Of a stretch of DNA of 38,492 nucleotides, positions 5,699 to 33,543 are shown one piece after another. The position numbers and the translations under genes are program-made. Source of the stretch: a virus; IMG/VR virus record IMGVR_UViG_3300030503_000212, positions 1-38,492 of that record, one strand, 5' to 3'. The notes below the pieces were generated by a model that was not told the DNA's origin, did no database searches, and saw nothing but the letters and a program-made list of their open reading frames with translations. Every line of letters begins with the position of its first letter. Positions within the stretch are counted from its first letter, which is position 1.

Positions 5699-6145
5699 AT
5701 GCAGATGCATTGGGTGGATTGTGGAAAGCCAGAGCGGCCTTTTGATGGCGAGGTAGTTTTACTTAGTGTTGTACATTTTCAGTATGGTGAGACACGTCAA
5801 CACATCTTGGCAGCAATTCCTCATATTGTGATTGGAATTTACAACGGTGTGAGGGATAGCTACGATAACCTCGATTTTAGACCATATTCTGTTGATGATG
5901 CACACGCTTTGCAGGCTTGGGCACGACCTATACCGTATGTGCAGCCATCAATGCTAGACTCAGTTCTCCAGGCCAGTCCTCAATACAAATTGCCTGAGAT
6001 TGTTGAGAGCGATGATGGTATGAGTGAGGATTGTCCGATTGTGTACAAGAACGTGCTGAAGACTGCTGTTGGTCGGCAATTTGGTGTGTTGTGTTTTGAA
6101 TGCGATACAGAGCCTGTACCTGTATTTGACAATACGCAACAGTAA
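5699..6145 (+). CDS. DUF551-like phage protein (paralog 2)
   Basis: GGAGG RBS before ATG 5699; HWVD...PFDGEVVLLS...AWARPIPY. Confidence 0.65.
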   Translation: MQMHWVDCGKPERPFDGEVVLLSVVHFQYGETRQHILAAIPHIVIGIYNGVRDSYDNLDFRPYSVDDAHALQAWARPIPYVQPSMLDSVLQASPQYKLPEIVESDDGMSEDCPIVYKNVLKTAVGRQFGVLCFECDTEPVPVFDNTQQ

Positions 6146-6168
6146 GTGAGATTCTTTGAGAGTCACGC

Positions 6169-6174
6169 TATAAT
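6169..6174 (+). promoter_or_regulatory. -10 element driving the RNA cluster
   Basis: gcTATAAT about 7 nt before G6181; a CAAC-N5 motif copy lies at 6137. Confidence 0.6.
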
Positions 6175-6183
6175 GGTTTCGGG

Positions 6184-6273
6184 ACGGGGATGGCGGAATT
6201 AGAAATTGGTATATGCCGTGCATAGCGCTAGGGTTGAGATACCCGTGCAGGTTCGACTCCTGCTCTCCGTCCA
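6184..6273 (+). ncRNA. tRNA-like RNA (Leu/Ser-type long variable arm) with truncated anticodon arm
   Basis: Acceptor ACGGGGA/TCTCCGT; TGGCGGAATT..GGTA D arm with insertion; variable arm GGGT-TGAGAT-ACCC; T arm GCAGG-TTCGACT-CCTGC; anticodon arm only GTGC-ATA-GCGC. Confidence 0.75.
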
Positions 6274-6343
6274 AAGGTTTTTAGTAGCAGGTGTTTGATT
6301 GAGGTTCGGCCATCTGCATCTTTAGTTGAGTGAGGAGCATCAT

Positions 6344-6544
6344 ATGTCTGTATTACAACCGTACCAGCAACGAGTAGTACAAGAGCGTGACGAGCTGCAA
6401 GAGAAAGTGGGCAAGCTGGCGGAGTTCGTGCGGTCTCCGGGGTTTGCCGATGTAGCCACAGACGACAGAACTCTGTTGCTGGAACAGTATCAAGCGATGA
6501 CTGAGTACGTGATTATTTTGAGCAGGCGTATCGCACGGTTTTAG
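6344..6544 (+). CDS. small coiled-coil phage protein (crAss001_48-like)
   Basis: GAGGAG RBS; YQQRVVQERDELQEKVGKL...Q..AMTEYVIILSRRI pattern. Confidence 0.75.
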   Translation: MSVLQPYQQRVVQERDELQEKVGKLAEFVRSPGFADVATDDRTLLLEQYQAMTEYVIILSRRIARF

Positions 6545-6605
6545 GTTTCAACAGTAAGTGGCTGCTTAGAGCAGATCGTGGTTTTGACAATAGAAAGTTT
6601 GAATT

Positions 6606-6690
6606 TGTTTGGGGACGGTCGGGTCATTAATCTGCCATGTAATGTAAGACCCCGCTTAGATAATGAGATGCATGGAGCCGTTCCTAAACA
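6606..6690 (+). ncRNA. structured RNA module M1
   Basis: 14-bp closing stem tgtttggggacggt/gccgttcctaaaca with G-U pairs; three crossing internal complementarities. Confidence 0.6.
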
Positions 6691-6693
6691 TCC

Positions 6694-6898
6694 GAAAAGT
6701 ATTGAGGCCGCTCGTAGCGTGACAGAGATGCGTTAGCAGCGACTGCTCAGGGATCGGGCTCGAAAGAGAACCTCTACTCTGTGACGGTTAGGCTGGGGGC
6801 TGCTCCCACTCCAGATGTACAACAAGTCTTGCGCTTGCGTCGTGGTTATAAGGCCGAAGCTGACACAGTGTCAACTACGAGCGACCTCAATACTTTTC
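6694..6898 (+). ncRNA. structured RNA module M2 (205 nt)
   Basis: 24-nt closing stem with one mismatch, extended by tgaca/tgtca; internal hairpins agcag-cga-ctgct and ctc-gaaa-gag; acagag/ctctgt. Confidence 0.7.
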
Positions 6899-6905
6899 AG
6901 AATGT

Positions 6906-6980
6906 TGCATCGTAGCTCAGTGGTAGAGCAGCGCCCTGTTAAGGCGACGGTCGTAGGTTCGATACCTACCGATGCAGCCA
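6906..6980 (+). tRNA. tRNA-Asn(GTT)
   Basis: Acceptor TGCATCG/CGATGCA-G-CCA, D arm GCTC-AGTGGTA-GAGC, anticodon loop CTGTTAA, T arm GTAGG-TTCGATA-CCTAC. Confidence 0.95.
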
Positions 6981-6985
6981 AATAA

Positions 6986-7179
6986 ATCGGCGGCGATGAG
7001 TAGACAGGACAGTTTGGCCACCTGACACTTTGTGTTGAGTAAGACTGTTCGCGCTGGATTGGAAAAGACTAGCTGGGAGTGAGACCCGGTGCCCTACAAG
7101 TGGCTAAGGGCTATGTTGACGATGCCAACCGTGACCGCAAAATCCATGCTGAGAGGCCAATGCCACTCAGTACGCCGAT
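6986..7179 (+). ncRNA. structured RNA module M3 (194 nt)
   Basis: Closing atcggcg..tgagt / actca..cgccgat; internal gacagttt/agactgtt, tggatt/aatcca, ctggg-agtgaga-cccgg, gccct/agggc; crossing ttggcc/ggccaa. Confidence 0.65.
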
Positions 7180-7306
7180 GTTGAGAGCTTACGGTAATAG
7201 TTGGTTGTGAAACCTCGTGAGGAGCGGAACTGCACTACTGATGTGAATCAGGAGCGACGGCGTTCTATCTGTTAGATCCATACTGACAAGCACGTAAGCT
7301 CTCAAT
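7180..7306 (+). ncRNA. structured RNA module M4
   Basis: Perfect 13-bp ttgagagcttacg/cgtaagctctcaa; internal ctgat-gtga-atcag (GNRA), cctc/gagg, tgttag/ctgaca. Confidence 0.65.
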
Positions 7307-7322
7307 ACTTTTCGGTAAAAGT

Positions 7323-7415
7323 TTCCCGGTGGTCGGCTGGGCCGTAACTCTCTTTACGCGTTGTGCTGGTGTGCATAGCAAGTTCACAGAGGAGCGGAAT
7401 GTAGACCATCGGGAA
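7323..7415 (+). ncRNA. structured RNA module M5
   Basis: 12-bp ttcccggtggtc/gaccatcgggaa; internal cgtaa-ctctct-ttacg whose loop complements downstream agag. Confidence 0.6.
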
Positions 7416-7421
7416 TTCAGT

Positions 7422-7519
7422 TGGGAGTGTGGGGTAATCCACCTTAGTCAGATACCAAGGGCAACGGCCTTTACGTGAATGCCTCGAATCCCGGTTAGTT
7501 CTGTAGGCCCACACTCCCA
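7422..7519 (+). ncRNA. structured RNA module M6
   Basis: Perfect 12-bp tgggagtgtggg/cccacactccca. Confidence 0.6.
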
Positions 7520-7526
7520 GTGATGT

Positions 7527-7629
7527 ACGAATGTAGCTCAGCGGTTAGAGCGCTATGGACCTGCGGAGGAGAAATCTGTTGATGCAAGCAAAGGTTCTGA
7601 GGTCATTGGTTCGAATCCAATCATTCGTG
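7527..7629 (+). ncRNA. tRNA-like RNA with anticodon arm replaced by a larger structured domain
   Basis: Acceptor ACGAATG/CATTCGT, D arm TAGCTCAGCGGTTAGAGC, variable AGGTC, T arm ATTGG-TTCGAAT-CCAAT; about 45 nt in place of the 17-nt anticodon arm; no encoded CCA. Confidence 0.75.
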
Positions 7630-7633
7630 CTAA

Positions 7634-7724
7634 TTTTGCAGTGTAAAACCTAATCCCAGGCGTGGGAACGGCGGCACTGGTGAGGAGATAATCCAACCCA
7701 GCTCGGTACGGCCACACTGCAAAA
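7634..7724 (+). ncRNA. structured RNA module M7
   Basis: Perfect 11-bp ttttgcagtgt/acactgcaaaa; internal tccca-ggcg-tggga, ctgg/ccag, gga-gataa-tcc. Confidence 0.6.
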
Positions 7725-7779
7725 TACAACCTGCAACACTATTTAGACCTCCAATGTATGTACCTCCGGAGGTTCTAAA

Positions 7780-7974
7780 ATGATAAGTCTATTGCTGTCA
7801 TTGGTAGTGTTTGCACTCATCTGTTGGCTGGTATGGTTTATTCTCACGAAGATTCCAGTACCAGCACCGTTTGTATGGGTTGTACAGGTGATATTCGCAA
7901 TTTTCGTAATCATCGGTTTGATTAGTTTGCTTGAGGGTGGTTGGCGTATTCCTCTTGCCGTGCCGATGCGATAA
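7780..7974 (+). CDS. small two-TM membrane protein (Thivi_2564-like)
   Basis: GGAGG RBS; two hydrophobic helices separated by KIPVPAP. Confidence 0.75.
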   Translation: MISLLLSLVVFALICWLVWFILTKIPVPAPFVWVVQVIFAIFVIIGLISLLEGGWRIPLAVPMR

Positions 7975-7978
7975 CAAG

Positions 7979-8059
7979 TTGCTACACCGTAGGCCGGGAG
8001 CCACCACAGAATCAACGGGGGATTGTATCGAGCCTGTAAAAGTGGGACGGTAGTAGCAA
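7979..8059 (+). ncRNA. structured RNA module M8 (possible pseudoknot)
   Basis: Closing ttgctac-accgt/acggt-a-gtagcaa; aggc/gcct crossed by ccac/gtgg with a taaaa linker. Confidence 0.55.
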
Positions 8060-8061
8060 AG

Positions 8062-8104
8062 AGTGGGGCTCGCTGGGCCGTTAGCGCTTGGGCAGAGCCC
8101 CACT
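8062..8104 (+). ncRNA. hairpin module M9
   Basis: Perfect 10-bp agtggggctc/gagccccact plus upper stem; no + strand U tract (followed by AAAAA, so could terminate on the - strand). Confidence 0.45.
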
Positions 8105-8113
8105 AAAAAGATT

Positions 8114-8252
8114 GATGTTTCCACCAAGAAATTACTGAGCCGCAGCGCTGATGTGAACAGGTTAGCTGCTCAAGGTCCCAAGTCACATTGGGGAACCGGG
8201 CCTCTGCAAGAGGTCTGAGCATAACGGACAGTAATTTCTTGGTGGGAACATC
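8114..8252 (+). ncRNA. structured RNA module M10
   Basis: 24-bp closing stem (one U-G); internal tgctca/tgagca junction, cccaa-gtcaca-ttggg, cctct-gca-agagg. Confidence 0.7.
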
Positions 8253-8295
8253 ATTGAATACGCACGATGTGAGTCAACAGTAAGTTGATTCGAGA

Positions 8296-8348
8296 GCTTG
8301 AATGGAGTTTGTATTCGGACAGGTGTTCGACTCACCTCACCTCCACCA
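8296..8348 (+). ncRNA. ssrA: permuted tmRNA, acceptor piece (5' boundary approximate, may extend to about 8255)
   Basis: GGAC-AGGTG-TTCGACT-CACCT-CACCTCC-ACCA is a tmRNA 3' end; gcttgaatggagttt pairs with ggattttgttcaagt of the coding piece. Confidence 0.9.
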
Positions 8349-8478
8349 ACCAGCACATACGCGAATGTTTCCCAGTAAAGATTACGTTGCGCCCACCTAG
8401 AGGCAGGTTGGTCTATAACAACGTGAACCCCTACTGGGGGATAAGGAATTAAGCCTCATTCGATGTGTGCTGGTATGT
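8349..8478 (+). ncRNA. tmRNA intervening segment, 130 nt, highly structured
   Basis: accagcacat..cgaatg / cattcg..gtgtgctggt closing; internal cccagta/tactggg and acgttg/caacgt. Confidence 0.75.
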
Positions 8479-8800
8479 GGGGGTGTCACGGTTTCGACGG
8501 GTCGGATTTTGTTCAAGTAATTGTGCCGGGACTGGTACTCACCGAAGTCTCACATTAGGAATGACGCTTAGGCACATGACCCTAGTGAGGGGAACGAAAC
8601 GAGAGCTAAATCAAAAAGTGCCAACACTGTTGACACGGGCCGTAAGACTGCGAAGGTACTGGCATTCCCAGCACCTGTTGTTGCAGCTCCTATGGTTGCT
8701 ATGGCCGCTTAACAGGCGTCCGTCCGGAGGTGAGCAATATCCGTCGAAAGACCATGCTTACAAGGTGCCCTGTACACAGAAATGTGTCTGGGGCATTTTT
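8479..8800 (+). ncRNA. ssrA: permuted tmRNA, coding piece; tag (A)ANTVDTGRKTAKVLAFPAPVVAAPMVAMAA* at 8620-8712
   Basis: GGGGGTGTCACGGTTTCGAC is a tmRNA 5' end; GGGGGTG/CACCTCC gives G3-U70 (Ala identity); resume context AAAAAGT-GCC-AAC; tag ends in AA; 3' end approximate. Confidence 0.9.
8765..8800 (+). terminator. intrinsic terminator ending the RNA cluster
   Basis: gtgccc..acac / gtgt..gggcat followed by T run. Confidence 0.7.
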
Positions 8801-8809
8801 GTTTCCCGC

Positions 8810-8815
8810 TACAAT
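8810..8815 (+). promoter_or_regulatory. -10 element (gcTACAAT)
   Basis: Recurrent motif, directly after a terminator. Confidence 0.55.
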
Positions 8816-11258: not shown

Positions 11259-12104
11259 ATGGCTAAGGAAACTGGTGAGATTGTTCGGTTAGAGGATTTC
11301 TTTGAGGGACGCCGGGCGTCGGGTAAGGTCCATGTTGACAATCTGATCGTGGTTCCTGGCCATAACCCTCGCGATTTCAGCCTGCGTAAGAATCTTGAGC
11401 ACGTTGAACGGCTGAAAGTGTCGATTCTTTCCATAGGCTTGTTGGAGCCGGTTTTGGTGCGGTTCGACGCCGGAACCAAGACAGCTTATATCGTTGACGG
11501 TGAGAGTCGTTACCGGGCGGTAAAAGCAGCGGTCGCCGAAGGACACAGCGGTTACATCGATGTCATCAGAACATCTGAAAAGATCGTATCTGAGGAGCTG
11601 GCAACGATTCAGGCGCTTGAGGCCAACACTGGCAAGCACATTACGCAGTGGGAGGTCGGATCACCTTATGCGAAGTTCCGCAAGTGGGGATGGAGCGATG
11701 ATCGTATCGCGACACAGTTCCAAAAGAGCGCCCGGTACGTCCGCGATGCAATCGAGCTGTCCGAGGCTCCCAGCGACATCAAGCAGGCTCTGGACAATGA
11801 GGAGATCACGGTTGCTGTGGCTCTCAAGAACCTCCGCAACAAGGGCAATCAGGCGTCGGCCTCAGTAGCGGCTGCTGTAGCCTCTGCCAAGGCTCAGGGT
11901 AAGACCAAGGTTGTTGCCCAGTACACGAAACGGGCTCAGGTTACTAAAGTGGACAATGAGTTTCTTGTGCGGCTGCACAAGGCCCTCAGCGGGTTCGATT
12001 TCACTGGTTCTACTGAGGTGCTGGAGCTGATCGAGGAGCTTGAAGTTCTGCTCCCAGGTCCGGGCAAGAACGGTCAGGCTGCTAAGGATCTGGATTCGTT
12101 CTAA
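11259..12104 (+). CDS. ParB/Spo0J-like protein
   Basis: GGAGG RBS; NPR, SILSIGLLEPVLV, IVDGESRYRA; HTH GWSDDRIATQFQKSARYV. Confidence 0.85.
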   Translation: MAKETGEIVRLEDFFEGRRASGKVHVDNLIVVPGHNPRDFSLRKNLEHVERLKVSILSIGLLEPVLVRFDAGTKTAYIVDGESRYRAVKAAVAEGHSGYIDVIRTSEKIVSEELATIQALEANTGKHITQWEVGSPYAKFRKWGWSDDRIATQFQKSARYVRDAIELSEAPSDIKQALDNEEITVAVALKNLRNKGNQASASVAAAVASAKAQGKTKVVAQYTKRAQVTKVDNEFLVRLHKALSGFDFTGSTEVLELIEELEVLLPGPGKNGQAAKDLDSF

Positions 12105-25363: not shown

Positions 25364-25617
25364 TGGATCAGGTACTCATGCAGTCCTATATGTTGCCCAT
25401 CAACTCTAGGCAACAGTTTACGAAAGTTCGTGTGGAGAAACGTTACGGCTATTGGCATATTCATAGGATCACAGGACATCGTGTCTTGGATATGGTAGTT
25501 CCTAGTTTAGCTTTTGGCTGTGATTACGCTTACGTAGGCATGACATTTACTATGCAGTCCGAGCTGAATTCTTACTATGCTCAGTTACGGAAATCTTATA
25601 GGGCAACACAAGTATGA
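25360..25617 (+). CDS. hypothetical protein
   Basis: ATGA-coupled on both sides. Confidence 0.65.
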   Translation: MMDQVLMQSYMLPINSRQQFTKVRVEKRYGYWHIHRITGHRVLDMVVPSLAFGCDYAYVGMTFTMQSELNSYYAQLRKSYRATQV

Positions 25618-28475
25618 ATATTGCTCAAGATCCGGATATCTGTAAAAAGTGCAAGCTCAACAGACTTGAGGGAGCCACAAAGATTTTTACAGAAATCTAT
25701 GGTCGCCCGATCATGATCGTAGGACAGTCACCCTCTCAAGAGGAGAATGACGAGTCTGAGTTTCTTGTGAACACATCACCTGCTGGTAAGTTCATTTGGC
25801 AGGCGCTGCGTCAGGTCGGTATTGAACGAGACGATTGTGATGTAACTGCCGCGTTGCGTTGTATCCCAGCAGAACCTGTTACGGGTTCGTACAGCAGCTA
25901 TCTAAAGCCCAGAGCTCCCTCGAAAGAGGAGATCAAACTTTGCTCCACATATACAAAGGGGCTTGTCACACTTGGGATCACGCCGCGAGCACCAGTTACT
26001 ATTGACGATCCTGATCCAGTAGAGGTGGGATCGGGTACACGTGCGATTCTCATCCTGGGGCAGCTGGCAGCAAAACAGTTATTGGGTGGTGAGTACAAAA
26101 AGAATCGCCGCATCATCGATTCAGCCAAGCTGGGTGTGCGTGTGTTTCTTGTCGATCATCCAGGGTTCTTTTTACGATCTGGTATCAAGGGTTTGAATGA
26201 GGATGATGAGCGCCTTAAGGCATTCCGCCAGACAGTTCAGGCGATGGCTGAGTTTGTTAACTCAGATGCAACAGTAGTTGGAGCCGAGGAATATTTACGA
26301 GCACAAAAGTATCGTCTCGTAAAGACCGGGGAAAAGGCATGGCGGTTTGTCCGTAAGCTCAAGACTTGGGCTATCGAAAGGAATGAGAGACTTTCTGTTG
26401 ACGTTGAGGACGATATACCAGATGATTTTGCTGAGACGGGAGTAGAGACTGGTGAGCGCGTTGTTCTGACAATGTCTATATGCCCTAAGCCCGGATACTC
26501 TGTGATGTTTGTTGTAGATCATCCGGATGCTATACGAGCAGAACGTGATGATATCGTAAAGGCTCTCGACTGGCTCCTATCAGATCCTGCTGTCAAGCTC
26601 ACGATGCACTACGGAGCGACAGATGCTGAAAAGCTGAATGACATTCTGGGAATCAAGACTCCCGGGTATAGGCTAGATACGTTTACGAGCATGTACCTCG
26701 CAAACCCAGGGTTGTTCAGTTACGGACTCGGAGGATTGACAGATAGCTTTGCCCCACAGTTTTCAGGTTACAAGCACATTATTGCTCCCTACGTAGGACC
26801 ACCTGGGCCTTGGCCTAAAATTGCATCGCGGAGCAATGAGACGCTGTACAAATTCATTTCGGCTAAGTCCACAATGCATTTTTCCCAGATACCATTGGGG
26901 GTTTTGCGTTTGTACAATAACGCTGATGCCGATATCGGCAAACGTTTTGAATTACTTTCGAAGGACTCCACACCCGAGGCGCTACAGGCGGTCTATACGG
27001 ACATGGGACACATTCTTATGCGTATGGAGCGTAATGGACCGCTTGTAGACTATAGGCATATTGAGACGCTCAAAAAGCTATGGCCACCTTTGGTAAAGAA
27101 CGCAGCTCAACGTTTGCGAGACGTTGCCGAAGATCCAGAGTTCAATCCCAACACACCAGCAGATGTTGCTTGGTTGTTATGGGAGAAACTTGCAATCCCT
27201 TATCCAGACCCTAAGGCCAAGAAAAAGAGTACTGGCAAAGAAATACTGTTGCAGGTTGCTCCCGACTATCCCATAGCCGGTGAGGTAATGGCTTATCGTA
27301 AAGTTGCAAAAACGATGAACACATACATCAAAGGTTATGAGTATTGTGCCAATCTCAACGGAGGCAGACTCAGAACTAAATGGTGGCTGGTTGGGACTCG
27401 GACAGGTCGTCTATCCAGTGGCGGATCTAAGGAAAAAATTGCTGGTGTAGTCAATCTCCAGAACATCCAAAAGAAAACTGAGATACGCAACATTCTTGTG
27501 TCAGATCATCGTTGGCGCGAGTTGCACCTATTCATAAAAGCCATGATTATGACGGGCTGCTCAGATGATGAGCTGGCAGAGTCTGTTATTAGTAAGTTTG
27601 GTGACATGGATGTGTTCTTGGAATTCGATCAAGGACAGGTTGAGGTTCGTGTAGCTGCTCAGTTGTCAGGTGATCGGCAGATGATTGCTGATTGTGAGGC
27701 TGGAGACATCCACTCCCAAGTGGGCCACGCCATGACTGGGTGGGCTATTGAACAGATTAAGAATGACAAGGACACGCGAACACGTACTAAGAACGTGCAT
27801 TTCGGTATTTTATTCGGGCTCAAACCTGACGGAATTTTGCGGTATATCAAAGGTTTTGATCCGCATACAAAGATTACACTACGAGACGTTGAGGGATACT
27901 ATGCAAACTATTTCAACCGTTATCCAGGCATGCAGGTATTCATTGACAAGCAGCATATATTTGCTGAGAACAATGGCTATGTTGCAACAGTTTTTGGGTT
28001 CAAGCGCCCGCTGATTATCAATGAGGACTTGAAAGGACTTGTCGATGACTATGGGCAACCTGCATATTGGAAAAACATCGCCGTCAATAGCCCTGTTCAG
28101 GGGAGTGCTCATCAGCTGCTAATGTGCGGAATCATAGCGTTATGGCGTCAGCCTGAAAAGTATGCGATGTTGGGTATACCTCAGATGGAGGTGCATGACA
28201 ACTTAGTGATGCGGATCAAGCTCAAGAATTTGGTTGAGTGCTACTGGCTGGCTAAGGAATTGCTTGAGCAAGAACCATTGCGTACGATCAAGCAGGATTT
28301 CCCGCATATTGACTGGCGTGTAAAGCTGGAGGTTGACGGTGCTGCTGGGTTTAGATTCGGTGTGAAATCCGGACTCAACAATAAGTTAACTATGGGCGCA
28401 TTCCTGCGGGATTGGTTTACGGAGAACGAAAAAGCTATCACTGCGATCAAGGTTTTGAAAGCAGCAGCTGCATAA
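25614..28475 (+). CDS. polA: family A DNA polymerase with N-terminal UDG-family-4-like domain and 3'-5' exonuclease
   Basis: CKKC/IMIVGQSP/RCIP/HPG (UDG-like); SVDVED and YNNADA (exo); TRTGRLSS, NLQNI, motif A DQGQVEVR, motif B RTRTKNVHFGILFG, motif C VHDN. Confidence 0.92.
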   Translation: MNIAQDPDICKKCKLNRLEGATKIFTEIYGRPIMIVGQSPSQEENDESEFLVNTSPAGKFIWQALRQVGIERDDCDVTAALRCIPAEPVTGSYSSYLKPRAPSKEEIKLCSTYTKGLVTLGITPRAPVTIDDPDPVEVGSGTRAILILGQLAAKQLLGGEYKKNRRIIDSAKLGVRVFLVDHPGFFLRSGIKGLNEDDERLKAFRQTVQAMAEFVNSDATVVGAEEYLRAQKYRLVKTGEKAWRFVRKLKTWAIERNERLSVDVEDDIPDDFAETGVETGERVVLTMSICPKPGYSVMFVVDHPDAIRAERDDIVKALDWLLSDPAVKLTMHYGATDAEKLNDILGIKTPGYRLDTFTSMYLANPGLFSYGLGGLTDSFAPQFSGYKHIIAPYVGPPGPWPKIASRSNETLYKFISAKSTMHFSQIPLGVLRLYNNADADIGKRFELLSKDSTPEALQAVYTDMGHILMRMERNGPLVDYRHIETLKKLWPPLVKNAAQRLRDVAEDPEFNPNTPADVAWLLWEKLAIPYPDPKAKKKSTGKEILLQVAPDYPIAGEVMAYRKVAKTMNTYIKGYEYCANLNGGRLRTKWWLVGTRTGRLSSGGSKEKIAGVVNLQNIQKKTEIRNILVSDHRWRELHLFIKAMIMTGCSDDELAESVISKFGDMDVFLEFDQGQVEVRVAAQLSGDRQMIADCEAGDIHSQVGHAMTGWAIEQIKNDKDTRTRTKNVHFGILFGLKPDGILRYIKGFDPHTKITLRDVEGYYANYFNRYPGMQVFIDKQHIFAENNGYVATVFGFKRPLIINEDLKGLVDDYGQPAYWKNIAVNSPVQGSAHQLLMCGIIALWRQPEKYAMLGIPQMEVHDNLVMRIKLKNLVECYWLAKELLEQEPLRTIKQDFPHIDWRVKLEVDGAAGFRFGVKSGLNNKLTMGAFLRDWFTENEKAITAIKVLKAAAA

Positions 28476-31563: not shown

Positions 31564-31581
31564 CTGAACGAGGTGAGTTAC

Positions 31582-33543
31582 ATGGCAGGAAAGAAAAAGG
31601 CAGGCTACGCAGAGGCAGTTGCAACTGCTGTGCTGGATGAGGAGCTTGAGGACGATGGCTCAGTAATCGATATTGCATCATTGAAAGCATCGGTACTCAA
31701 AGAGATCGGCTTGCGAGTGTTCGAACCTGAGACTCGTTTCGTGCTCAAGATGAAGTTTACAGGTGCTGAATACCTGCATCGGACTATGGGCACGCCTTAT
31801 GGTCTCCCGTATGGCAAAATCTACGAGCTGAGCGGGGCTGAATGTCTTGCTGACGATACTTTTGTGCGGTTCACTGTTCTGAACCGTAAGGGTGAGCGTG
31901 TTAATAGTAAGGGTGGTACCATCAAACGCCTTTACGAGAGATTTCACGGGCTTGAAGTCCCCGGTAGAGGTAAATATCAGCGTAAGCAGTTAAAACATGC
32001 TACATACACTCTTGCGTCAGTTAACGAACAAGGCAGAATCATCAGTAATCAGATCGAAAATGTAGTGAAATCTGGTCGTAAGAAATGCTACCAGCTTACA
32101 ACAGAATCTGGTTATAGGATCGTAACATCAGCCGATCATAGGTTTTTCAATGGTAAACGTTATGTACGTTTAGAAAAACTTTCTGTCGGTGATACGGTGA
32201 TGATCCATAACAACACACCGTACAAAGTCGATCACGGACGGCTTATACGGCCTTACGTTGATGTGCTTGTACACAATCACCCATCAGCCCCAGATAAAAT
32301 TACTGTTGAGCCATCATCTGGAAAAGTTTACACATACAAACGGTTGAAACGTTCACGAGCTGTTGTTGAGGCAAAAATGAACGGTATGGTACTTACGGAT
32401 TATGTTGAGCTTTTGAATTCGGGAGACATTGCTGGATTACAGTTCCTTTCATCGGATCAGCATGTTCATCACATAGACGAAGATACGATGAACGATGAGC
32501 CTGATAATTTGGAGGTAAAAACTCCATCGGAGCACGGTGTATTACATGCTACAGAACGCCACAATAATCTCCGTTTTGTGATTGTGCCAGATGTGATCGC
32601 ATCGATTACTTGTGTTGGTGAGCGTGATACGTACGACATATCAATGCGTGTTCCGTTTAACAATTTCGTAGCCAACAATTTTGTTGTACACAACAGTCAT
32701 GGGAAAAGTGTGCTGCAAAAGCTGATCGAGGGTGAGGCACAAAAGGATGGTGCGGTTGTCATTCATGGTGATATCGAGGATTCAGACGATCCGCCTTGGA
32801 ATGTCAAACTTGGTGTTGACAACGATCAGTTGATTCTCGTCAAACCCAAGATGATTATTCTGTCGATGCCACAAGCCCATAAAGATGCCAACAAGGTTGC
32901 AAAAGAGGCTTGGACAGCAAAGCCCGCTGCGTGGAAACTGGAGCATCCGTATAAGCGCCCGTTCGATCCACCTCTACGTCCGCAGACAGCCGAGGAGATT
33001 TTTGAGGAGATTGAAAAGCTCGTCGAAAAGCTGCATGCAGCAGGTGTTGAGAAAATGGTAGTGGCAATCGACTCGTTAGCCAACCTATCTACCAAGATGC
33101 AGCTTGAGGCTGGAACGCATACCAACATGCGGACTAATAGCGACTTTCCTATGTTCCTGTCGCAGAACCTCAAGCGGTGGCAAACACTAGCATCGAATTT
33201 CAACATTATGGTGCTGCTCATCAATCAGATACGTGAAAAGCCGGGTGTTATGTTTGGTGATCCTATTTATGAGCCGGGTGGTCGGGCGTTGCGACATAAT
33301 TGTGCGTCGCGTAATCGGGCACGCAGGGCTGGAAACGGTAAAATATTCCTTGCAGGCAAACTCATTGGCATCAGCGGTATTCTTAAGAACACCAAGAATA
33401 AGTCTGGTGAGGGATCGATGGAACAGCAGATGTGTACGTACATGGTGGAGTGGAATGACAAGCCTTTGTACAAGCGCGTGTCATTCGGCCACTTTGTAGC
33501 TAAGGAAAAGCCTGACAAAAACGCGCCGGTGGATGCAGACTAA
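31582..33543 (+). CDS. recA: RecA/UvsX-like recombinase interrupted by an intein
   Basis: GLPYGKIYELSGAE|SHGKS spliced P-loop; VAIDSLA; LINQIREKPGVMFGDPIYEPGGRALRH. Confidence 0.9.
   Translation: MAGKKKAGYAEAVATAVLDEELEDDGSVIDIASLKASVLKEIGLRVFEPETRFVLKMKFTGAEYLHRTMGTPYGLPYGKIYELSGAECLADDTFVRFTVLNRKGERVNSKGGTIKRLYERFHGLEVPGRGKYQRKQLKHATYTLASVNEQGRIISNQIENVVKSGRKKCYQLTTESGYRIVTSADHRFFNGKRYVRLEKLSVGDTVMIHNNTPYKVDHGRLIRPYVDVLVHNHPSAPDKITVEPSSGKVYTYKRLKRSRAVVEAKMNGMVLTDYVELLNSGDIAGLQFLSSDQHVHHIDEDTMNDEPDNLEVKTPSEHGVLHATERHNNLRFVIVPDVIASITCVGERDTYDISMRVPFNNFVANNFVVHNSHGKSVLQKLIEGEAQKDGAVVIHGDIEDSDDPPWNVKLGVDNDQLILVKPKMIILSMPQAHKDANKVAKEAWTAKPAAWKLEHPYKRPFDPPLRPQTAEEIFEEIEKLVEKLHAAGVEKMVVAIDSLANLSTKMQLEAGTHTNMRTNSDFPMFLSQNLKRWQTLASNFNIMVLLINQIREKPGVMFGDPIYEPGGRALRHNCASRNRARRAGNGKIFLAGKLIGISGILKNTKNKSGEGSMEQQMCTYMVEWNDKPLYKRVSFGHFVAKEKPDKNAPVDAD
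31843..32694 (+). mobile_element. intein (284 aa) with HNH homing endonuclease
   Basis: Starts CLADDT, block B TSADHRF, HVHHIDEDTMND...NL...H, block F TYDI, ends VVHN followed by Ser. Confidence 0.92.

Follow-up and report, generated by a model that had tools for sequence, protein, structure and literature searches.

This article concerns a cluster of predicted RNA structures in a window of 38,492 nucleotides (nt), which covers the opening 38.5 kb of an IMG/VR record of an uncultured phage (IMGVR_UViG_3300030503_000212; 107,763 bases, completeness 91% according to CheckV); the DNA runs that contain the window sequence are labeled peat metagenome. Between positions 6169 and 8800 of the window, hereafter the island, a tRNA gene, two tRNA look-alikes, and a two-piece transfer-messenger RNA (tmRNA) alternate with a series of segments that fold back on themselves so that their two ends pair, referred to below as stem-closed modules. 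All elements are on the + strand and are spaced by 0–16 nt, with tRNA-Asn, a tRNA-like gene, and the permuted tmRNA lying 0–9 nt from modules. A first-pass annotation of this DNA had described very short, AT-rich spacers, as is indeed the case (42 of 59 nt are A+T), and had assigned nearly every non-coding base to a module; two open reading frames (ORFs; 6344–6544 and 7780–7974) lie inside the series, and the element at 8062–8104 is a simple hairpin. The transcription signals said to bracket the set are also found. On the upstream side there is a sigma-70-like promoter-like site (6146–6174, + strand; GTGAGA, a 17-nt spacer, TATAAT; 10/12 consensus matches), and on the downstream side an intrinsic-terminator-like hairpin (8765–8800, + strand; a GAAA loop followed by the U tract TTTTTGTTT; −20.7 kcal/mol, z −2.30). 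The region has no general excess of promoter-like sites (6 vs 4.2 ± 2.3 in shuffles), and a simple terminator scan did not list the hairpin at 8765–8800.

Ten intervals proposed as modules were each folded alone, z being the folding energy measured against dinucleotide shuffles; in addition, the 6181–8810 transcript was folded as a single molecule, and the mean pairing probability in this full-length fold was taken for each terminal stem. Folded alone, 10/10 intervals close end to end, nine of them with a terminal stem of 11–24 bp. The long stems ascribed to all ten are therefore real in nine cases; the tenth, 6986–7179, has a weak helix of 7 bp. The z values range from −9.35 (module 8114) and −6.5 (module 7323) to −0.95 (module 6986), and the pairing probability of the terminal stem is at least 0.90 for 7/10 modules, 0.61–0.66 for two, and 0.00 for 6986–7179. 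Does a low probability dispose of a stem? It does not, because the acceptor stem of the genuine tRNA-Asn receives just 0.13 in the same full-length fold.

From 5′ to 3′ along the + strand, the series opens with an 85-nt module at 6606–6690, in which a stem of 13–14 bp, including two or three G-U pairs, encloses two inner hairpins (−30.0 kcal/mol, z −3.67; reverse strand −17.0, z −0.18; stem probability 0.98). The 205-nt module at 6694–6898 has a stem of 14 + 9 bp and a multi-branched interior with a GAAA loop (−84.9 kcal/mol, z −5.07; stem probability 1.00). It is followed, after tRNA-Asn, by the 194-nt interval 6986–7179, a weakly supported module with only the 7-bp terminal stem and several inner hairpins; a four-way junction at 7055–7150 inside it was considered as a tRNA mimic and rejected (z +0.61). 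The module at 7180–7315 (stem 7180–7306) is closed by 13–14 bp around three inner hairpins, two of which have GTGA loops (−45.1 kcal/mol, z −3.93; reverse strand −34.4; stem probability 1.00); the 3′ arm of module 6694 recurs here as the 3′ tail, CTCAATACTTTTCGG. Module 7323–7415 (93 nt), which contains GAGGAGCGGAA, combines an 11–12 bp stem with a single long irregular inner arm (−46.0 kcal/mol, z −6.49; reverse strand −28.1; stem probability 1.00). Module 7422–7519 (98 nt) has a perfect 12-bp stem (z −1.62; stem probability 0.90), and its inner part resembles the T-arm region of the adjoining tRNA-like gene (alignment z 3.1). Beyond this gene lie a 91-nt module at 7634–7724, with a perfect stem of 11–12 bp and two inner hairpins (z −2.35; stem probability 0.66; the 12-bp repeat is at 7633–7725), and an 81-nt module at 7979–8059, with an 11-bp stem interrupted by one bulge (z −1.96; stem probability 0.61). 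A plain G+C-rich hairpin of 43 nt (8062–8104; −26.9 kcal/mol, z −4.16, stem probability 0.99) precedes the last module, 139 nt at 8114–8252, whose 24-bp stem, including one U-G pair, encloses a branched interior (−70.1 kcal/mol, z −9.35; stem probability 1.00).

The module interiors are mutually unrelated in pairwise alignment. At the 3′ end, modules 6694 and 7180 are paralogous (a 35-nt region, 71% identity, alignment z 5.1): outside a common TTGAG/CTCAA their stems have diverged and both are still paired, which may be taken as a hint of compensatory change, the sole one at hand. The duplication of this 3′ arm also explains a 15-nt perfect complement between 6692–6706 and 7301–7315, which spans 594 nt and has a probability of 0.00 in the full-length fold. 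GNRA loops, noted in the interiors by the first-pass annotation, do occur, but the minimum-energy folds contain only three GNRA tetraloops. The Shine-Dalgarno-like GAGGAG is found 4 times vs 0.66 expected in 1,513 non-coding nt (P 0.0045), partly within helices, and four modules bear it.

The density of stems in the island is far beyond chance. The 108-kb genome has 14 perfect Watson-Crick inverted repeats that are 11 bp or longer and enclose a loop of 20–220 nt: 5 fall within the 2.6-kb island and 9 in the remaining 105 kb, so that their density in the island is more than 20 times that of the rest. In other phage loci the background is 0.14 per kb (115 repeats in 829,321 nt), and 500 shuffles of the island average 0.07 and never exceed 2. 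The folds also have a preferred strand. The + strand fold is the more stable for 8/10 modules (~54 kcal/mol summed over the ten), as expected from the earlier remark that G-U pairs favor this strand: stem G-U pairs become A-C mismatches on the opposite strand. The GC skew has no switch at the island.

ARAGORN calls two genes in the whole genome, tRNA-Asn(GTT) and a permuted tmRNA, both of them in the island; outside it, the genome has 0 Rfam matches and 0 further tRNA. The tRNA-Asn gene (6906–6980, + strand; RF00005 66.7 bits) encodes its CCA. The tmRNA (8252–8803, + strand; ARAGORN tmRNA*; RF04321 56.7 bits, cut-off 47) is of the two-piece, circularly permuted type, in which the intervening segment must be excised and is cut off by host enzymes. 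Here, this segment (approximately 8349–8478) is closed by a long helix of 11 bp stacked beneath the acceptor stem, and the stretch 8338–8485 folds with −66.2 kcal/mol (z −5.95). The tag, ANTVDTGRKTAKVLAFPAPVVAAPMVAMAA (window 8620–8712), has 30 residues, the last four being AMAA, and far exceeds in length the 10–14-residue, ANDxxxALAA-type tags of 40 other permuted tmRNAs called in the IMG/VR loci examined; one further IMG/VR contig has a similarly long tmRNA tag.

Two other elements look like tRNAs without qualifying as such, and neither encodes CCA. The tRNA-like gene at 7527–7629 (+ strand; RF00005 48.2 bits) has canonical acceptor, D, and T arms, with 45 nt in place of the 15-nt core of the anticodon arm; the insert contains GGAGGAG. 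Default ARAGORN does not call it; when introns are allowed, it becomes a tRNA(CAA) interrupted by an insert of 26 nt between nt 33 and 34. The cloverleaf of a tRNA, with a 5-bp anticodon stem and a 7-nt loop, is not attained, and the insert position is non-canonical. We know of no bacterial route for removing a 26-nt insert from this position, so the gene is treated here as a tRNA look-alike. It is not unique in kind, because a pattern scan of IMG/VR retrieved 8 other contigs with tRNA-like genes that keep intact acceptor, D, and T arms and have 46–70 nt between the D and T arms; this segment mostly folds as a long irregular arm, and default ARAGORN misses most of these genes. At 6/8 of the loci other tRNA genes are present, up to seven per locus. 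The second look-alike, of class-II type, is at 6183–6271 (+ strand) and scores 25.9 bits with the tRNA-Sec model (cut-off 47; E 0.034). The acceptor stem is 8 bp long, the T arm is canonical, a variable arm is present, and the D arm is enlarged, while the anticodon arm has shrunk to a 4-bp stem with a 3-nt loop; it aligns with class-II tRNAs and with RNA1 of phage T5, and default ARAGORN makes no call. The tRNA, tRNA mimics, and tmRNA that had been noticed at the outset are thus confirmed by ARAGORN or Rfam for tRNA-Asn, 7527–7629, and the permuted tmRNA, with 6183–6271 remaining below the cut-off.

The island also contains two small protein genes, both on the + strand. The upstream one (6344–6544, 66 amino acids from its ATG, with a GAGGAG ribosome-binding site) matches the crAss001_48-related family (Pfam PF21825, E 1.1e-18; phrog_774, E 1.6e-18). 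The downstream ORF (7780–7974) has a GGAGG site upstream and encodes a hydrophobic chain of 64 residues with no Pfam or PHROG match; its product is likely a membrane protein. A perfect 12-nt palindrome, ACCTCCGGAGGT, at 7763–7774 pairs the GGAGG site of this ORF with its own complement and could sequester it, acting as a translational switch. No plausible ORF exists outside these two genes: among ORFs of at least 15 amino acids with a Shine-Dalgarno-like site, only frames of 31 and of 23–24 amino acids are present.

An 11-mer, CAACAGTAAGT, recurs in this phage. The 108-kb genome has 29 copies, of which 11 are on the + strand and 18 on the − strand, and both coding and non-coding DNA contain it; those in the window are at 160, 4484, 6137, 6549, 8275, 9366, 12144, 19403, 29739, 31533, and 34517. 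The copy at 6137 overlaps the promoter-like site from upstream. The 11-mer is often extended to a near-palindrome, TCAACAGTAAGTTGA, and often stands just upstream of ribosome-binding sites or TATAAT; it resembles a binding site for a DNA-binding protein of the phage. Apart from this genome-wide 11-mer and one chance-level match, a search for antisense targets of the island in the phage genome found no complement of at least 14 nt.

The genes that flank the island, all on the + strand, belong to phage replication and DNA metabolism (Pfam/PHROG). Their products include a topoisomerase-like protein, a DUF87/HerA-like ATPase, methylases, a ParB/KorB-like protein (gene at 11259–12104), a helicase, a primase, a family A polymerase, and a RecA/UvsX-like protein with an intein. 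The polymerase gene (window 25614–28475) encodes an N-terminal domain of the uracil-DNA-glycosylase superfamily (Pfam UDG, E 2.8e-10), and the recombinase gene (window 31573–33543) has an intein that carries an HNH endonuclease domain (Pfam Intein_splicing + RecA; PHROG HNH matches). Among 138 ORFs scanned in the 108-kb genome, no reverse transcriptase, Ro60, RtcB, RNA ligase, RNase, or SmpB domain was found. A retron non-coding RNA (ncRNA), which requires an adjacent reverse transcriptase, was rejected on this ground.

Do the modules resemble anything recorded elsewhere? Rfam 15 was scanned at gathering thresholds and with E relaxed up to 10. At gathering cut-offs, only tRNA (twice) and tmRNA_permuted pass over the island, and no module does with any family, Drum and 6S included, in agreement with the initial impression that the modules match no recognized family; at E up to 10, no ribozyme, riboswitch, Y RNA, GOLLD, or ROOL match falls on a module, and the matches that do are at chance level (sR39, 14.2 bits, E 2.4; Six3os1_3, 11.9 bits, E 8.2). 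A blastn search with 6169–8800 against 50,697 phage records matched 113, none of them covering at least 80% of the query, and 40/40 alignments among the matches listed cover the tRNA-Asn part only. Pattern scans of IMG/VR for permuted tmRNAs (32 + 9 loci) gave only short tmRNA and tRNA matches; a scan for two GAGGAGCGGAA motifs 145–175 nt apart gave 4 unrelated loci, whose motifs belong to coding repeats or ribosome-binding sites; and a scan anchored on the DUF87 protein found nothing. Anchoring on the topoisomerase retrieved the nearest relative, a single locus with 54% identity, whose fragment (58% complete) stops short of the expected place of the island. A metagenome scan with a topoisomerase alignment kept 80 loci of 514 (45–55% identical), none with similarity to a module; any tRNA at all is present in 4 of these 80. 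When a 634-amino-acid neighbor was compared with 5.8 billion proteins, the best non-self match was 38% identical over most of its length. As judged by these comparisons, the phage has no close relative. A published survey (PMC10690425) lists 10,006 candidate viral RNAs, and a motif covering a module could be among them.

How could such an island work? The stems and their density, the strand bias, the identity of the tRNA and tmRNA, the lack of coding sequence between the two ORFs, the bracketing signals, and a layout like that of the tRNA regions of phages T5 and T4 are all directly observed. We think it slightly more probable than its negation that the island is an exceptional array of + strand, stem-closed folds that are predicted to be co-transcribed with the tRNA, tRNA look-alikes, and tmRNA and are likely cut at the bases of their stems into small stable RNAs. 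The first-pass annotation had already proposed a precursor cut into discrete RNAs; one strand, close spacing, interleaving with the tRNA, tRNA-like genes, and tmRNA, and bracketing signals fit such a precursor. Host RNA polymerase would start near 6181, downstream of the promoter-like site at 6146–6174, and end at 8800, giving one or a few precursors, and the nascent RNA would fold into self-contained domains. RNase P and the enzymes that trim tRNA 3′ ends may then cut beside the ~12-bp stems, 12 bp being the length of a stacked acceptor plus T stem, and RNase III may cut the two 24-bp stems. The paired ends would shield the products from exonucleases, allowing them to accumulate.

Several observations weigh against this interpretation. 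None of the collections searched yielded a homolog of a module. The peat population is clonal: outside the tRNA, contigs of 4 peat runs, out of 24 listed, match the window letter for letter, which makes strain-level covariation impossible, and 0/24 of the listed runs are on record as RNA. A recognizable phage-encoded partner for RNA binding or RNA processing is absent from the 138 scanned ORFs, and no module has an encoded CCA or a recognizable RNase P, RNase III, or RNase E signal, the helix aside. Module 6986–7179 is unsupported (z −0.95, with a stem probability of 0.00), and three further modules have z values of only −1.6 to −2.4. The 11-mer copies at 6137, 6549, and 8275 could mark separate regulatory sites, so a single operon is not assured and more than one control point is possible. 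Finally, the likeness to T4 and T5 is one of layout and shape, local alignments being at noise level except in tRNA-like parts. Even the similarity of 6183–6271 to T5 RNA1 appears to be generic to tRNAs: a covariance model of RNA1, R1, made from 8 T5-like phage sequences chosen from 487 matching records, scores it at 17.7 bits, barely above the true tRNA-Asn (14.1) and 7527–7629 (14.0).

Could the modules serve their neighbors and have no life of their own? They might be cis-acting structured spacers that isolate domains, guide cutting, and protect the tRNA, tRNA-like RNAs, and tmRNA before being degraded. Their placement exactly between recognizable genes, 0–16 nt away, suits this role, as does the closed form that they share with the discarded intervening segment of the tmRNA; mutually unrelated interiors and the lack of homologs that would point to a conserved function are also what one would expect of spacers. 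Yet about nine modules face four recognizable RNA genes, modules 7180, 7323, and 7422 follow one another with no gene to punctuate, a total of ~1.1 kb is costly for spacers, and the analogous RNAs of T4 and T5 accumulate as stable species, according to record notes and a passage of one paper; we regard spacers as unlikely, if deserving of attention. It is harder to believe, and in our view improbable, that the modules are for the most part tRNA genes, decayed or rebuilt, and copies of one another, the remnant of a larger phage tRNA array kept only because clean processing of the neighbors still requires an acceptor-like end helix. The look-alikes 6183–6271 and 7527–7629 are plainly tRNA-derived, module 7422 has a T-arm-like stretch, modules 6694 and 7180 are partial duplicates, and some relatives of T5 have tRNA-Ser or tRNA-Leu annotated at the RNA1 locus. 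However, perfect end helices of 12–24 bp exceed any acceptor stem and would not survive neutral decay, no module scores with a tRNA model at E up to 10 (leaving aside the three tRNA-type matches), and the four-way junction in 6986–7179 is not significant.

Two other proposals change the unit rather than its purpose. Sub-domains that follow each other nearly without spacers, together with the perfect complement of 6692–6706 and 7301–7315, might suggest that ~6600–7725 is one large ornate RNA divided into many sub-domains, comparable to GOLLD and ROOL, which also lie beside tRNAs in phages. This seems quite improbable: the long-range pairing would have to compete with two local stems whose probabilities are 1.00 and is accounted for by duplication of the 3′ arm, neither GOLLD nor ROOL is matched at E up to 10, and a tRNA and a tRNA-like gene lie inside the interval. 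The stems are nearly perfect, like those of young DNA palindromes, and the region is set among replication and partition genes, so one may ask if the inverted repeats act as DNA, being miniature mobile elements, recombination sites, or an origin. We give this very little credence. Miniature inverted-repeat mobile elements were rejected because the arms differ between modules, 6694/7180 aside, so that there is no shared family of terminal repeats, and because inspection of the borders revealed no target-site duplications; moreover, G-U pairs and folding energy favor the strand of the tRNA and tmRNA genes, there is no skew switch of the kind sought, and the promoter-like site and terminator bracket the set.

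If the island does give rise to a set of small stable RNAs, what would they do? We would guess, first of all, that they sequester host proteins that deal with tRNAs or translation; host factors are preferred as partners because no phage RNA partner protein was recognized and the search for antisense targets found none. As for the two tRNA look-alikes, they may be substitutes or decoys for tRNA-directed enzymes. A bolder version, in which about nine new structured-RNA families and two tRNA mimics, whose anticodon is missing or disrupted, are co-expressed as decoys that soak up host factors, strikes us as rather doubtful. Were it true, the mimics would be directed at tRNA-cutting defense nucleases and tRNA-processing enzymes and the modules at ribosomes or RNA-binding regulators, and the phage would spend 2 kb on RNA decoys instead of protein inhibitors.

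Among known systems, the closest in layout is the tRNA region of T5 (NC_005859), where eight misc_RNAs are annotated as “stable RNA with unknown functions” or “tRNA-like stable RNA”: RNAI, RNAIII, RNAIV, RNA1, RNA2, RNA2H, RNA3, and RNAX, seven of them of 73–172 nt and RNAX of 719 nt. As in the island, these RNAs are on the strand of the tRNAs, several abut tRNAs and each other at 0–4 nt, and small ORFs, some with transmembrane domains, lie between them. The minimum-energy folds of 6/7 T5 RNAs tested have a terminal stem of 5–12 bp, RNAIII being a 12-bp stem around three hairpins. The RNA1 locus is conserved in 487 phage records. The differences are of proportion and of evidence: in the stretch viewed, T5 has 25 tRNA features vs 8 stable RNAs, while the island has about nine modules per one canonical tRNA; several island stems are longer than those of T5, up to 24 bp; and the stable RNAs of T5 are on record as having been observed, whereas the island modules are predicted only. 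In T4 (NC_000866), rnaC and rnaD, each a “small, stable RNA” (139 and 119 nt), directly adjoin tRNA-Arg, on its strand, where the tRNA cluster ends. A T-arm-like hairpin is present in rnaC. The ends of RNAC and RNAD are processed like those of tRNAs. Unlike the modules, to which they are not homologous, these two RNAs have minimum-energy folds without long perfect end stems. They derive from the T4 tRNA region and are seen as late RNAs on Northern blots, and their roles are described as unknown in the passages concerned (PMC3014915, PMC9697503).

Other comparisons are less close. The intervening segment of two-piece tmRNAs, one of which is present in the island, is likewise a stem-closed piece of a stable-RNA precursor; it is, however, a discarded spacer inside one gene, whereas the modules are free-standing and outnumber the genes that they could serve. 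YrlA-type bacterial Y RNAs are tRNA-mimicking ncRNAs closed by a long stem of their 5′ and 3′ ends. This family was considered and rejected: RF02553 scores 16.9 bits (cut-off 69) over tRNA-Asn and not over a module, and no Ro60/TROVE is found in the 138 ORFs. The crAss-like phage phi14:2 produces long intergenic non-coding transcripts that are early and lastingly abundant, with a function reported as undetermined (10.1101/2020.03.07.982082); the comparison is by description, and the passage on these transcripts makes no mention of stem-closed modules or of tRNA/tmRNA neighbors.

Is this, then, an undescribed system, as was first suggested? It is not: the T5 and T4 records already annotate ten small stable RNAs of unknown function in tRNA clusters. 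The modules share with them a non-coding nature, the strand of the tRNAs, a place within a phage tRNA/tmRNA cluster, abutment on tRNA genes, a size of ~70–200 nt, and paired ends. By likeness of kind, they may be regarded as new orphan members of the T4/T5 small-stable-RNA class, a class set by setting and not by homology. The failure of Rfam to match the modules says little and is to be expected for this class, because Rfam 15, scanned at gathering thresholds over T5 25000–45000 and T4 66000–76000, returns 29 matches, all of them tRNA, and matches 0/10 of the stable RNAs. RNA family libraries miss the class, and a lacking Rfam match in a phage tRNA island should not imply a new system. The stable RNAs of the T4 and T5 tRNA clusters have been annotated for decades, and reviews, in the passages at hand, still call their role unknown. 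The island is an extreme case, with about nine such RNAs predicted beside a single true tRNA in a lineage unrelated to T4 and T5, which argues that the class is widespread and is no by-product of large tRNA arrays.

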